Shown here: piece by piece, positions 21,167 through 60,200 of the stretch
Position numbering within the stretch: position 1 is the first letter of the stretch
How the letters are laid out: each line of letters starts with the position of its first letter
Origin: Eledone cirrhosa
Lineage: Eukaryota
Reading direction: 5' to 3'
Assembly (NCBI GenBank): GCA_964016885.1
Contig: OZ024743.1
Location: 220,038,001 to 220,102,000, forward strand
Length of the DNA: 64,000 nucleotides
Translations under genes and position numbers: made by a program
The notes under the pieces: model-generated
The model's input: the letters and a program-made list of their open reading frames with translations, nothing else
Told to the model about the DNA's origin: nothing
Database searches by the model: none

Positions 21167-21640
21167 ATATATATATATATATATATATATAGGAAAAAGT
21201 ATGACCCCGACGGCAGGCAGAGCTCAAGCCGTTTCGACGGCTATTTCTGGACTAAAATAGTCCAGAAATATATCTATATATCTCTCTTTATATATATTCA
21301 TTTATATATATGTACATATCTATCTATCTATCTATCAATCTATTATCGAGCCCTCTTTGGATTTTAGTCTTCAAATTTATTATTATTACTATATATATAT
21401 ATATATATATATATATATATATATAGATATATATATATAGATATAGATATATATAGATATATATGTACATATATATAAATGAATATATATATATATGTAT
21501 ATATATATATTTATATACCCATATATATATTTATATACCCATATATGTATACATATATATATATATATGTACATATATATAAATAAATAAACATATATAT
21601 ATATATATATATATATACACACACACACATATATATATAT

Positions 21641-21925
21641 ATATAGACATAGAATATTCGAAAATATTCTGTATGTTTATAATAAACATTTTGAAGACCT
21701 AATCGCTATAGAATAGAATACGTCACGTATTACAATTAGATTCTCGATGAAAGCAAGGGAAGTAAATCTACGCGTTTCATTCTTATTAGAAATCGTCAGG
21801 ACGTATTCTATTCTATTCTATAGCGATTAGGTCTTCAAAATGTTTATTATAAACATACAGAATATTTTCGAATATTCTATGTCTATATTCACATATATAT
21901 CGCTATTTCAGAGCATTTATTCCAA
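21641..21925 (+). mobile_element. Fold-back insertion in (TA)n, related to 40044-40400
   Basis: Inverted arms of about 85 bp; shared end CGCTATTTCAGAGCA; degenerate HHR-like motif on the minus strand at 21765-21803. Confidence 0.65.
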
Positions 21926-23760
21926 TATATATATATATATATATATATATATATATATATATATATGAAAAAGTGAGTCCTTCATCAGTGACCCTCCAAC
22001 CGTCCTCGGCATTTCATCGCTTTAAGGGCCATATGCCTCAGGTTGGTGCGAACAACGGCTAAAAAAAGTCGTTGGGACACGTAAATAAAGGGGGACGCTA
22101 GAGATATATATATATATATATATATATATATAGTTTATTTCCAGGAAAAAAATAACAAACTATATTGGTGAAGTGTGTTTCTCTTCTGTTATACCTGGTG
22201 GGGCGGGAAAACAGGATGGAATCACTTACCTGTGTGAAATGCCTTCGGGAAATTTAAGACTGTATAGAAAGTGGAAGAGAAAAATGGGAAAGGATATATT
22301 TATCATTGGAATCGATTATTATTATTACTATTGTTGTGATTATTATTATTAATATTATTATTATTATTTTTATTATTCTTTTGTTATTTATATGTATTGC
22401 GTGTTTAAAGTCTTTGGGTACGATATATATATATATATATATATATATATATATATATATATATATATATATATGTATATATATATATATATATATATAT
22501 ATATATATATATATATATATATATGTATATATATATATATATATATATATATATGTATATATATATATATATATATGTATATATATGTATATATATATAT
22601 ATATATATATATATATATATATATATATATGTATATATATATATATATATATATGTATATATATATATATATATATGTATATATATATATATATATATAT
22701 ATATATTTATAAACACACAGATACATGCGGACACACACATATATACATGAATGCATCCGCACCCAACTGTGAGTTAAGGGTGCCAACTTCACCGATGTTG
22801 CTCAATGAATGACTGGGACAGACCAATTCAGTTTGAACCAGACTGAACCAGTATCAGAGTTAAAAATACATTATGAAGAGAGAAGAAACATTTAGATATA
22901 ATTAGTAATAAAATGTATCATACCTAAACTGCTCCTAAATTCCTCGACTATATATATATATATATATATATATATATATGTGTGTATATATATATATATA
23001 TATATATATATATATATATATATATATATATATATATATATATATTTATATATATATATATATATATATATATATAAATATATAAACATATATATATATA
23101 TGTGTGTGTGTGTATATGGTATATGTGTGTGTGTGTATATGGCTGTCCTCAAAACAGAAAGCAAGTACATCATAAGTAGATGCGTAAAATTAAAATGTAG
23201 GATATGATTTATATCAATATGTATACATACATCAATATATATATATATATATATATATATATTGATGTATGTATATATATATGTGTGTATATATAGTAGT
23301 AGTAGGTAGTAATATATATAGAGAGAAATATATGTATATATGTGTGTGTATAATGAATACACCCATACATAAACAGTGTGCGCATGCAAATAATACATTT
23401 ATACATATATATTCACATAATCATGCATGCATACAATTCATATAAGCTTGATAAAGAATAATGTGTCCATCACGGAGCTATATTTATGCAAAACTGCAAT
23501 CAAATGGACATTTGGTTTCTATATGATAATTAAGAAACGATACACACACACACACACACACACACACGCACACACACACACACAGACACACACATGTATA
23601 GTAATAATAATAATAGTAATAATAATAATAGTAATAATAATAATAGTAATGATAATGTGAAGACTAAAATCCAAAGAGGGTGAAAGCAGCGATTCTTTGC
23701 TTAAACTTTAATCCGTTATTTTAATATATATATATATATATATATCTACGTATCTATATA

Positions 23761-56425: not shown

Positions 56426-57279
56426 TCAATCCTTGCTAGCTAAATAGTATATGTATATGTATATGTATAAGTATGTATATATATATATATAACATTTGTG
56501 TGTGTGCGTGTGTACATAAATGTTTGCGACCTGGTTACTTCTTAGCAATAAATTGGGGACGTAGAATGTCAAAGCTTGTCTGAGGCGCTACTTTGCTTTC
56601 CTCAAAACATATCTACAGAATAGGCTTAGTCTGGTATAAAACTGATGAAATCGATCTGACTAACTTACGATCATGAGCCAAGCATCCTAACCACTAAGCC
56701 ACGCGCTTTCATGATGCACACATATACATGAGTACAAAACACAAACATTACAAATACACTCTAATATGCGCGGACCCTCCCACATACAGGTGCATACACA
56801 CATGTATATCGCTTATATGCAAACTCCCTCAAATAAGGAGGAATATGACACCAGTTGACGTGTTTAAGATCTATAAATATAATCCTGTATAGCGACATAA
56901 AAATATTTAGCAAGAAAATTCCAAGACTTTCATAAGAGCATTAGCAGACTTGAAAAATGGTTGGAATTTTAAATTATTAACTGCTGCTTAACCTCAAATT
57001 TCCAGCGTGATTTTCGAAGAAACAACTTAATATATTAATGGCTTCTAATTTCGGGATAAGGGCAACATCAGAGTAAGTGGATTCGATTCAAATATAAGAA
57101 AAAAACAAACAAACAAAAAAACATCCGGTAAAACTTGAATGTCACTTGAAGAATAATATATTGCATACGCGAAATGAACCCGGCACTTTAGAATTAAACC
57201 TCTTGTTATCATGACCCCGTGCTCATATTTGAAGTGAAACATTTTAAAAGTAAAACTTTTCTCAAATCATGTTGTAGTA

Positions 57280-60200
57280 ATAATGGTTTCTAATTTAGGC
57301 ACAAAACCAGCAATTTTAGGGGTCGGTAAAATCGATTATATCTTTTCCAGTAGTTGACTGGTACTTATTTTATCGACTCAGGAAGCACGAACGAGAAAGT
57401 TGAGCTCGGTGGAATATTAAGGTTTGTAAAATGTTATTGAAGGAGGTGAATTAGTAGAATTGTTGGGGCGTTAGTTTAAAAACGCCTCTGGAGTTATACC
57501 GACTCACTGTGTTCAAATCCCGCCGAGGTCAATTTTGCCTTTCACACTGTCGAGGTCGATAAATATAGTACCAGTCTCTCTCTCTCTCTCTCTCTCTCTC
57601 TCTCTCTCTCTCTCTCTCTCTCTCTCTCTCTCTCCCTCTCTCTCTCCCTCTCTCTCTCTCTCTCTCTCTCTGGAATAAGTAGACTATGTTCCAGTCTGGA
57701 GAGGAATGATCTCTACCAGGTTAAAAAAACACAAAACACGTCGTACGCTATGTCGGCGCCCTTACAACAATGTTAGAACATTTTCATAAAGCATTTGGTA
57801 ACTTCAAAATGTATATGCATGTTTGTCTATTTTGAGGGGTGCAAGGAAAGAAACTATTGATGTTTTCCCAGAACAACAACAACAACAGCAACAACAGCAA
57901 CAGCAACAACGTCGACGACAAAAACAAAAAACAACAACAGCGATGATGATAGCAACAGCAACAAGGACAATGACACATTTACCAACAACAACAACAACAC
58001 CACCAGCAACAACAATAATGACAACAACGACCTTACCAGCAACAACAACAAGAGAAGCAAGGAAAGAACAACAACGTGCGGGCGTGTATAACTTGGAGCT
58101 ATGGACATGTTAGAAATTTTCTACACGGTAACAAAAGGATATCCCAGCCTCATAGGTGTGAGAAGATACCACCTAAGTAGGATCATGACACCCCCAAAAA
58201 CATTAGCAGTAAGAAGTTACCACCTTGTCACCGAGACATCTCACATTTGGAAAATCTGAACATTTTCCACCCTGATCATCTTCTGCTAAATAGGTCCTTC
58301 GAAATTTCCCCATGAGCATTTCCAGTATTAACTGAACCGTCAAAGACCCCTCCCCCATCTTCTGGAGCCACATCTCTCAGCTGTTGATAGACAGCCAGCA
58401 TGGTCTTTAACAACCATTTACCATGTAGGGTTGCTCAGTAGCCGTCGCCCATAAGAAGGATTTCAAATTGAGGTACATGTCTAGCAATTTGAGGGAAGGA
58501 TATTATATTAACCCACCCCAAACCGCCTCGATTTCTATGAGACAAAACCTACTATTTTAAAGGGTCCTCATTTAAATTTAAACCTTCCAACGCAATTTGA
58601 AATGAGAACCTTTTATTATGTTATGTTATAAATAACATCTTCAACATATAATATTTTCTAATTTTGGTACTAGGCCAGTAATTTTGGGAGAGGGAAAAAG
58701 TCAATTAAACCGATCCCATAGCTTGATTGGTACTTTATTTTATCGATCCTGGAAGATTAAAAAGCGGGATTTGAACTTAGAACGTAAAGATTCTTAACCA
58801 AATTATCACAAAGCAATTTTGTCTAATGCTCTAATCATTCTGCTTACCAACGGACTCCGATTTTGCTAAACCACAGTCCCTGATTCTGTCAATCCACCAT
58901 GATGATAATTGAAAAAGACAATGCATACCTACTTATAGACATGTCTATCCGTTGACACAATCTTACTGACAAGATAGAAACATGAAAACTAAACAAGACG
59001 AAATCAAGACAATTTCTTTAGATTCCAGGATTTTTGGGTTAATATATTATGCCACAGACCAATAAACTGTAAAATACCTGATGGCACCAAAGTGCACCAA
59101 ATGCTTAAAGATCGTTCTTACCATCATTGCACGCAACATTAAAGAAAAAAGAATATGTCCAAAGATTCGATATATTTGGTGATAGATTTAATCCCTCACT
59201 CGGGTTAACACGACCACCTGACATTTTGGTGCCTTTAACGGTAAAGGATTAAAAGAATTGAAGAAAAAACAAATGGGAACAAATATAGATTGTACAGAGA
59301 TTGTGAGAGACAAACCACGTTGTACCGAACTGCCGAGTTTTAGGGAAGTCGAAATAAATGATAGAATATTAAGTTAATTCCGCTGACAATATGTCCATCC
59401 ATTTATCCATTGGCACTTTAAACTTGGTAGAGCCCATCTCTCTCCAGATCAGAACAAAGGCAATTTCTTCCAGAAAAAGAGAGAAATTGGGAAAGAAAGT
59501 TAGAGAGAATAGATTCATGTGCTGGACTGGTACGTTATTTATCGACCCCGAAAGAATAAAAGGCAAAGTTGACCTCAGCTGAATTCTATCTGGCGTTCTA
59601 ACAACTTTGCTAACTCACGAAGTTGTTGTTACAGCACCCACCTTCGTAGGTTTAGCTGGACTGCAATGAAGTTAAATTTCATAGAACGTCTCTTGGGTGT
59701 ATAATGATCGTTTAATATGAACGAACACGAGAATCAATACTCAGTGCCACCGATAGAAGTCTGTAGCATACAGGGATAACTCTAGAGTAACAGGCACAAC
59801 CATAATAAGTCACAATAAACCACACACATATAACATTTATATATGTGTGTTCATTTATATATATATATATATATATATATATAAACGACAAAAGGAGGTA
59901 CAAAAAGGCTTATTAGTTTCACGCTTTATACAGACAAGGGGAAAGATATATATATATATATAACGAAGGAAGTGTGGTAAGGAACCAGATGGACCATAAC
60001 ACACCAGAGTACTCAATACTTAGGGTAGTAGAGTGGGTAATAGGAGAATGTTCAAGACCCCGACGGCAGAGCTCAAGCCATTTCGACGTCTATCTCTGCC
60101 GTCGGGGTCTTGAACATTTTCCTATATATATATATATATATATATATATATATATACGTATGTGGTTGATGGCTAAATAACAAGAAAAGACCAACAAGAC

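Follow-up and report, generated by a model that had tools for sequence, protein, structure and literature searches.

Short insertions containing only half of a hammerhead ribozyme (HHR) recur within a 64,000 nucleotide stretch of Eledone cirrhosa DNA (contig OZ024743.1, positions 220,038,001 to 220,102,000), hereafter the window. Why do these insertions turn around where they do, and is the ribozyme responsible? An earlier note counted about 12 such insertions, termed family A, between 21189 and 60125; we located 12 in that span. A 22-nt family A anchor had 12 matches in the window and 0 in 20 shuffles. Across the genome, one exact family A 22-mer was matched 38,075 times (control 0). Family A is real and comprises tens of thousands of arms genome-wide. 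Nearly all 12 window insertions adjoin (TA)n, as had been described, and (TA)n was found on the flanks of 30 of 30 best-match loci. The size given previously, up to about 200 bp, agrees with largest window insertions of 207-208 bp. The sense strand had also been read correctly as GAAA, stem III and a GUC site. Repeat detection in the window was swamped by (TA)n, and most fetched family A loci are from the start of one contig (C1), picked by pattern.

Positions in family A are given relative to HHR residue C17, which is 0; the cleavage site is 0/+1. Six copies named previously (23761, 37323, 37924, 53047, 33476 and 21189) turn 12-22 nt upstream of GAAA, and their junctions all differ. The two-arm insertion at 23761..23955 has a tail arm on the minus strand to -34 and a longer tail-less arm, on the plus strand, to -40. 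In the two-arm insertion at 37321..37518, the tail arm is on the plus strand, from -40, and the tail-less arm extends to -37/-38. Both arms reach ~-40 in the two-arm insertion at 37924..38131, which has a short templated spacer. They reach ~-44 in that at 53047..53253, a near-perfect palindrome. On the minus strand, 21189..21270 has a tail-less arm (+20 to ~-43) and a 12-nt opposite stub (21259-21270, -40 to -29) running into (TA)n. Similarly, 33475..33627 (minus strand) has a tail arm to ~-40 and a 12-nt opposite stub at 33616-33627.

The earlier note placed the apex on stem II for the whole set. This held for the six copies above; the other six turn or end elsewhere. The two-arm copy at 52885 (52883..53005) turns at the predicted cleavage site (0/+1). 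The tail arm at 47146..47241 (minus strand) has its 5' end exactly at +1, the predicted cleavage site. At 59961..60125, the tail arm of a two-arm insertion extends to ~-36 and the tail-less arm only to ~-8, inside stem III. The remainder are single or rearranged arms: a diverged tail-less arm (~-30 to +20) at 40410..40460, plus strand; a tail with only a few arm bases at 46832..46924, minus strand; and a diverged arm (+6 to -30) fused with a piece of tail in inverted orientation at 26785..26848, minus strand. Two regularities had been overlooked. The outer ends of family A are both fixed, at +18 and +96 from the cleavage site. In addition, a 79-nt tail is on exactly one arm in 106 of 108 two-arm insertions.

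A parent with a complete HHR and a link to a Penelope-like element (PLE) had been supposed, and such a parent was found, carrying a PLE ORF and a complete type I hammerhead. It did not emerge from a search based on CUGANGA; this gave 50 matches (control 0), and the 20 loci checked were apex variants or junctions with other sequence. The parent ORF (L127:4080-6239) encodes 719 aa with the motifs FDIE (253), YRDD (348), VIY (591) and YIG (606), and has 2,217 homologues. Judged by motif, the parent is an EN+ PLE with a single ORF, reverse transcriptase (RT) followed by a GIY-YIG endonuclease. No informative match came from Pfam, for the parent or any of 4 homologues, or from PDB sequence searches. 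A partial tandem (pLTR), an inverted 5'-truncated copy and a one-sided tail are present at L127, L121, L129, L256, L259 and L260.

The motifs assign the parent to the Hydra clade of C-terminal EN+ PLEs as described in PMC8557442. They include RWR at 37 (for RWK), DKT at 117 and CxCX5C at 572; there is no CCHH, one Cys lies between VIY and YIG, and CxxC (670) and CxH (698) follow, close to the conserved E and N. A first guess, the Nematis clade, was dropped against the Hydra-clade definition in PMC8557442. According to that paper, Hydra-clade PLEs likewise have a single ORF, RW(K/R), DKT, a CxCX5C linker and no CCHH, with CxxC and CxH near the C-terminus, a (TA)n target and a hammerhead. Units there are generally <3 kb, whereas the parent unit is 3.1-3.5 kb; RWK stands in place of RWR; and PLE tails are 30-40 bp, compared with 79 nt in family A. 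Family A is further set apart from the described Hydra clade by a U3-A8 core, a long stem III, and its 3'-end stubs, which number in the tens of thousands and have a sharp 5' wall. Non-LTR retrozymes are arrays of non-coding units in tandem, every one of which has a complete hammerhead (bioRxiv 10.64898/2026.07.22.740005). Conversely, short family A copies hold half a ribozyme and are inverted rather than tandem.

The parent carries a complete type I hammerhead, predicted to have a U3-A8 core. A three-way junction with GAAA and the NUH site is the minimum free energy (MFE) fold of L127:3790-3910. The hammerhead is the MFE fold in only ~12 of 39 long arms, with a stability no better than shuffles (z -0.46). 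Eighteen aligned ribozyme copies are 91% identical, and their variable columns are mostly unpaired positions. As the earlier note stated, the 5' half of the HHR is absent from every window copy, but the missing half is not the CUGANGA that was named there. That core was found in 0 of 39 long arms; UUGANAA was present in 28, C at position 3 in 9 and G in 2. Hence the 3-8 pair is a compensated U3-A8 in 28 of 39 cores and absent in 11. The window holds the 3' half only, and no hammerhead was among the 150 Rfam matches listed (of 365); those listed are miRNA and snoRNA models on simple repeats and palindromes.

The U3-A8 variant is known from Cercyon PLE pLTRs (PMC4209133). The hammerheads of that study share with family A the type I topology, a long stem II in which a base close to the 5' end is unpaired, the U3-A8 core and a palindromic loop III. 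Stem III is 6-8 bp here, like the fungal and protist forms, as opposed to the minimal metazoan form (PMC4209133). Unlike the PLE pLTR hammerheads of PMC4209133, loop II is ~45 nt and holds a predicted promoter.

Plotted against the parent, apexes are clustered and not random. Of the first 100 arms reaching -36, 75 end by ~-46, inside the stem II loop (scored by eye). Among 315 distinct arms, 273 end at -28 to -44, 4 at -46 to -60, and 38 are long. The 21,337 nt beyond -50 contain 24 ends (0.0011 per nt), a rate ~100-fold lower. The 5' limit of this wall is ragged over -40 to -44, and 1-4 extra parent bases are kept in 41 of 125 arms. Unpaired arms, among the 30 listed, mostly begin at the wall too. 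In 14 of 29 insertions running from tail to ORF, the ORF stops at +141 to +918, a jump; the piece that follows starts at -37 to -42 in 7 and at +1 in 3. In contigs of 4 sequencing runs aligned to L127:3700-4300, a tenfold depth step was present at ~-41 in run X1. Contig depth is not copy number, and X1 may be the assembly's own sample; the step is only a sign that the wall is no assembly artefact.

A TATA-like box at -69 lies 29 nt before A(-40), where there is an initiator-like motif. The box is non-canonical and variable, the L127 form occurring in 6 of 18 aligned copies. A cap-like G is at -41 in 11 of 19 untemplated junctions, compared with 7 of 40 at -39 to -35 (Fisher p 0.003; the test was post hoc and the 11 G arms derive from 9 insertions). 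A splice acceptor at -40/-39 was considered and rejected; AG is kept in short copies and there is no common upstream exon. A minor wall is found at +1. Here, a purine precedes +1 in 304 matches, compared with 72 at position 0; of the first 100 of those 304, 66 are true breaks. This genomic wall is a sign that the predicted ribozyme may cut at +1 in vivo.

Two further families were compared. Family B2, the control, is a Neptune-type PLE, also present in the window. Of 100 B2 arms, 52 are short, and all 52 end in one 6-nt motif 30 nt behind TATAAAA, a sequence kept in 26 of 27 B2 long arms. The B2 wall is as sharp as that of family A and lies 72 nt upstream of the B2 cleavage site, outside the B2 ribozyme. 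Similarly, the B1 wall (13 arms) is ~115 nt upstream of the B1 core and outside the B1 ribozyme. There is no clear G excess in B2 arms (2 of 52, by eye).

We think it probable that family A is the last 60-140 bases of a Hydra-clade PLE, inserted head-to-head in (TA)n and ending at the predicted 5' end of the element RNA. Copies likely end ~40 nt upstream of the cleavage site because that predicted 5' end is there. DNA junctions are our only grounds for inferring the RNA start site, the cap and cleavage. The scheme is built on the 719-aa ORF with RT and endonuclease motifs, the 3' UTR with its complete U3-A8 hammerhead, and the two 3' ends that are constant at +18 and +96. Within the stem II loop, a promoter would start a capped RNA whose 5' end carries no more than the 3' half of the ribozyme. 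The protein would cut both (TA)n strands and start reverse transcription from each DNA end at its own internal RNA site, the two sites being mostly on one RNA. Both cDNAs would run off the RNA end as strong-stop DNA; trimming, microhomology of 0-6 nt or a short templated fill would then join them, giving a variable apex. If a cDNA jumped to an RNA 3' end instead, a long or tandem copy would result. RNAs begun farther upstream would be cut by the ribozyme, producing the minor wall at +1. The ribozyme fold itself would be a bystander to the main apex.

The wall could be the RNA 5' end, with both arms made from a single cDNA. Starting from +96, this cDNA would snap back, copy to the first TAT at +18 and join the target; later centre deletions would scramble which arm is longer. 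We consider this unlikely. Self-priming has already been published as a hypothesis for PLE palindromes (PMC3846280). One tail per insertion fits it, as do the stubs at 21259 and 33616, which end at an ATA, an earlier match to (TA)n. The two arms agree in subfamily haplotype in 73 of 76 insertions (chance expectation, 0.28); this also fits one arm having been copied from the other. However, either arm can be the longer. In 87 unselected short insertions, the tail arm extended farther 5' in 35 and the tail-less arm in 28, with 24 ties. For 17 scorable long insertions, arm-length symmetry was 8:7; the tail-less arm went farther in 7, by up to ~2 kb, and 2 were exactly symmetric, in keeping with a snap-back. 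The longer tail-less arms have no internal tail to copy (L242, L248, L254). Since the tail-less arm is often longer, one self-primed cDNA cannot easily account for the insertions. The same junction types also occur in both orientations in mutation-free copies. Furthermore, chimeras at L031 and L040 place a family A arm head-to-head with an arm of another PLE family, and one insertion (L180) has arms of two subfamilies.

A different RNA end could also be envisaged, with all other steps as in our preferred scheme. Cleavage within the stem II loop by a nuclease, or decay halted by bound protein or structure, would leave a processed end at the wall. The ragged 5' limit, the weak TATA box of family A and the missing G excess in B2 all suit processing, but we regard it as quite improbable. 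In B2, a canonical TATAAAA is at exactly 30 nt; in family A there is the G excess at -41, and the variable base at this position keeps the initiator-like motif in both variants.

The earlier note proposed that RT stalls in hammerhead stem II, and that the cDNA folds back on that stem and primes the second strand. In keeping with this, the parent ribozyme is complete and the wall falls within the extended stem II, where an apical hairpin is predicted with the wall on its 3' strand. Even so, we judge it very improbable. The 37924 hairpin, taken to be native, is not; the mirrored arm does not match the 5' strand of the parent stem II, the native stem has the ~45 nt loop, and the spacer is a short templated duplication. 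Fold-back products on native stem II or its apical hairpin numbered 0 in all fetched loci. To reach the wall, copying had passed through stems I, III and II, which are stronger, and unpaired arms and jump products begin at the wall as well. Arms of either kind being longer, and the two-family chimeras, also disagree with a stall. The position of the family A wall is real. B1 and B2 have their walls outside their ribozymes, and a role for the ribozyme fold as an integration intermediate is not supported. That family A is a fixed non-autonomous unit (a MITE or palindromic SINE) copied whole would suit the fixed, TA-flanked outer ends but is largely refuted, as junctions differ among otherwise identical copies, lengths grade continuously into complete ORF-bearing copies that share both ends, and the tail switches side relative to the longer arm.

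In retroviral minus-strand strong-stop synthesis, priming near the RNA 5' end is followed by run-off and a jump. In LINE-1 twin priming, two primers per break give an inversion. By comparison, family A would be DNA-primed with no tRNA, and its primers would copy the same stretch to give an inverted duplication. We suggest, tentatively, that PLE replication might be a retrovirus-like cycle of strong-stop and strand transfer, without LTR or tRNA, in which family A represents failed jumps. Transcription starting at -40 would fix one limit of the RNA's terminal redundancy, at the 5' end, and hammerhead cleavage at 0 would fix the other, at the 3' end. With the promoter inside a monomer-competent ribozyme, the 5' copy would be born incomplete and only the 3' copy would cut. 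The pLTR would be regenerated once cDNAs primed close to the 5' end, at +18/+96, had run off and jumped over the 40-nt redundancy. Such a cycle would explain insertions ending downstream of the cleavage site. Position -40 is passed seamlessly in 13 of 15 ORF-bearing tandem copies, for which our preferred scheme needs a second template class or an efficient jump.

The element type and its inverted, tailed stubs were already known; the value of this analysis is in the junction statistics. Head-to-head arms, a palindromic junction and a one-arm tail are shared with the PLE insertion unit of PMC3846280 and of the Fig. 2 legend of PMC8557442. Whereas PMC3846280 attributes the palindrome to self-priming on an antisense template, we favour two cDNAs from sense RNA with a defined 5' end. 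For Poseidon of Anolis, two internal start sites, with both target strands cut and extended, have been seen in vitro (PMC11167929). As in family A, these sites are downstream of the hammerhead and define the tail, and the target is AT-rich. Poseidon belongs to another clade, and the family A start sites are 79 nt apart. The same study (PMC11167929), which does not address the 5' wall, had no RNA reads ending at the cleavage site, whereas family A has the minor genomic wall exactly at +1.

A promoter in the PLE pLTR is described in PMC2377424. There, and in PMC8557442, pLTR regeneration and the origin of inversions in PLEs are posed as open questions. No strong-stop or twin-priming account of PLEs was found among the results listed from the literature searched, which covers few subscription papers. 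If our preferred reading is true, RNA synthesis begins at the 5' wall of the short copies, priming takes place at each end of the break, and +1 is where the ribozyme cleaves in vivo. PLE start and cleavage sites would then be readable from genome sequence, and pLTR formation would gain a mechanism. Stubs that stop at the RNA start, and not at a stall, would show how a poorly understood class of element copies itself. Family A and the other-clade B2 lie in the same window, which points to a precise and cheap test. Repeats at 17476, 18602, 19363 and 51880 share a 9-mer with family A; they are LINE 3' ends and unrelated.

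Family A consists of tiny insertions in (TA)n, typically head-to-head, with two inverted arms joined at an apex. We used the 139-nt arm from 37924 as a query and recovered 12 insertions in the window, between 21189 and 60125, matching the roughly 12 reported in the earlier note. The family A anchor matched 12 times in the window versus 0 times in 20 shuffles. Across a 464-kb region that includes the window there are 27 insertions in 26 clusters. In the 3.0 Gb genome searched, an exact family A 22-mer gave 38,075 matches (control, 0). At the 30 best-matching loci, the outer ends were fixed and (TA)n-flanked; the apex alone varied. 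Positions are numbered on the earlier note's sense strand, with the predicted hammerhead cleavage base C17 as 0 and minus values upstream. One arm ends at +18 and the other has a 79-nt tail reaching +96. Short two-arm insertions had one tail in 106 of 108 cases, with two tails and no tail seen once each. Family A is a very abundant 3′-end stub, of a known kind, of a Hydra-clade Penelope-like element (PLE).

The parent was not found by searching for CUGANGA (50 matches, 20 loci examined). Longer family A copies turned up among unselected matches. One locus, L127, carries a partial tandem, an inverted copy and an intact ORF (4080–6239, 719 aa). No stop codon interrupts the L127 frame from stem III across the tail to the ORF. 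The protein contains RWR, DKT and YRDD motifs, a CxCX5C linker and C-terminal CxxC and CxH; the stretch from VIY to YIG lacks a cysteine pair. Domains were named by motif alone because Pfam and PDB sequence searches gave no useful match. The motif set agrees with the Hydra clade definition in section 11 of PMC8557442 and, judged by sequence, the parent is of this clade. Hydra consensus files in the supplements of that paper could already contain family A. Scoring 8,000 candidates yielded 2,217 homologues of the protein at E ≤ 1e-20. Related PLE families appear numerous in the genome, since ORFs 25–60% identical to the parent protein occur in ~35 fetched loci (e.g. L134, L130, L184, L136, L120). 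The parent unit measures 3,118 nt in L127, versus 3,543 nt in L260, where at least 2.5 units follow one another head to tail without a seam.

L127:3790–3910 is predicted to fold into a three-way junction of type I in which the core and GAAA remain unpaired (z only −0.46). The base of its extended stem I coincides with the tail-less 3′ end (+18). The earlier note's expectation of a hammerhead-bearing parent with a PLE ORF was borne out by L127, but not its CUGANGA core, found in 0 of 39 long arms. These instead have UUGANAA (U3-A8, 28 arms), C3 (9) or G3 (2). U3-A8 is a PLE hammerhead variant already described in PMC4209133. By eye, the hammerhead shape was the minimum-energy fold in ~12 of the 39. 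The mirrored arm does not match the 5′ strand of native stem II, and loop II spans ~45 nt. Hence, contrary to what had been proposed, the insertion at 37924 does not preserve the native hairpin.

The proposed positional link to stem II holds, because the clustered 5′ limit of the arms, or wall, is inside extended stem II. Of 315 distinct arms, 273, drawn from loci enriched by pattern, end at −28 to −44, with 4 ending at −46 to −60 and 38 long. No arm extended upstream of −44 among the 27 insertions in the 464 kb. Among the first 100 of 24,501 arms reaching −36, 75 stop by about −46 and 25 go on (scored by eye); the exact pattern extended to −50 gave 3,461 matches. For 30 arms passing −50, 24 ends were scattered from −78 to −1391 and 6 ran off the locus. 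The end density here is 0.0011 per nt, ~100-fold under that at the wall.

A weak and variable TATA-like box begins 29 nt upstream of A(−40), where the motif is one we take to be initiator-like. Of 19 informative arms, 11 (from 9 insertions) had an untemplated G before −40, compared with 7 of 40 at −39 to −35 (p 0.003, post hoc). For this test 125 arms were examined, setting aside those that were long (42), had the parent base (41), were mirror-ambiguous (22) or TA-flanked (1). Control family B2 (window 12440–12780, also near 5779 and 54170–54330) is a stronger test of the wall. Its ORF motifs, named partly from PMC8557442, mark it as a Neptune-type PLE. Both B2 arms have a complete U3-A8 minimal hammerhead, and there are two fixed 3′ ends. 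Among the first 100 of 8,905 B2 matches were 52 short arms, all ending, by eye, inside one 6-nt motif. TATAAAA, which 26 of 27 long arms retain, precedes this motif by 30 nt. The motif itself is 72 nt before the cleavage site, so the entire ribozyme is kept. There was no clear excess of untemplated G at the B2 wall. For family B1 (13 arms), the wall is ~115 nt upstream of the core. Walls thus track promoter spacing rather than ribozyme stems. We infer that an RNA start inside the ribozyme is the likely cause of the family A apex position.

Families A, B1 and B2 all carry a CCAAT motif upstream of their walls. Family A combines a long stem III with a wall within the ribozyme, whereas in B1 and B2 stem III is short and palindromic and the wall precedes the ribozyme. 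In these three families, the contrast may reflect two ways to stop the 5′ copy cutting.

The tail-to-ORF junction had 40 exact matches; from 30 loci we obtained 29 insertions, 14 of which have an ORF that stops at +141 to +918. In these, the next piece starts at −37 to −42 (7 cases), +1 (3), −25 (1) or −88 (1, which also skips internally at −40); the other 2 lack such a piece. Run-through upstream of −40 occurred in 1 of these 14, versus 13 of 15 copies with long ORF stretches. The pattern is consistent with run-off at an RNA end and a subsequent jump that would be seamless only for RNAs possessing a 3′ end of their own. The seamless class is accounted for equally well by circular or read-through RNA, a proposal made in PMC4209133. 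At L231/L232 (G000:C3:118185500–118186200) each arm jumps twice, first from −40 plus G to −55, then from −88 to ORF +231.

In the mechanism we propose, an RNA start inside the ribozyme would be accompanied by priming from both ends of the target break. A Poseidon protein has been shown in vitro to cut both strands and extend them, with two internal start sites defining the tail (PMC11167929). At 2 of the 20 loci examined from the CUGANGA search (L031, L040), a family A arm is head-to-head with an arm of B1, a family with a CUGAAGA hammerhead. At L044, L050 and L032, family A arms are joined at about −33 to −40 with other hairpin-forming sequence. Both arms share one subfamily haplotype in 73 of 76 insertions (expected 0.28), which counts against a reading with two cDNAs. 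Taken with the one-tail rule, this concordance points to two primers acting on a single RNA, or to a degree of genuine self-priming. The earlier note's stall in stem II with self-priming is unsupported: self-priming from a tail-primed cDNA would never leave the tail arm shorter, yet the tail-less arm was longer in 28 of 87 unselected short insertions (tail arm 35, tie 24) and, by up to ~2 kb, in 7 of 17 scorable long loci (tail 8, equal 2), and among the fetched loci no product of fold-back on the native stem II, or on the apical hairpin of that stem, was found. A further 16 of the 33 long loci mapped were tandem, complex or broken in a reference gap. Among the papers listed by our literature searches, none gave an account of Penelope elements in terms of strong stop, twin priming or strand transfer, and the words palindrome, hairpin and ribozyme are absent from the main text of PMC13282606.

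There is another, second wall at +1. A purine before +1 gave 304 matches, versus 72 at position 0, many of which can also be read as +1. The first 100 of the 304 comprised 66 true breaks and 34 G-run expansions. Bystander tail arms began at 0 to +2 in 6 of 55 cases. The +1 wall is an indirect sign of probable in vivo cleavage at the predicted site.

Elsewhere in the window are near-perfect palindromic insertions of unrelated sequence (25200–25520, 26900–27100, 31540–31670, 33777–33878 and 38602–38874), hammerhead-like motifs near 931 (minus strand) and 53344 (plus strand), and another PLE with broken RT-thumb and GIY-YIG frames (2458–3432, minus strand). A LINE-type RT ORF of 798 aa (49561–51957, plus strand) is accompanied by near-identical 3′-end copies adjoining (TATC)n runs (17083–19440 and 47455–48312). 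A low-complexity frame of 535 aa (61355–62962, minus strand) resembles exon 1 of an NK-type homeobox gene.
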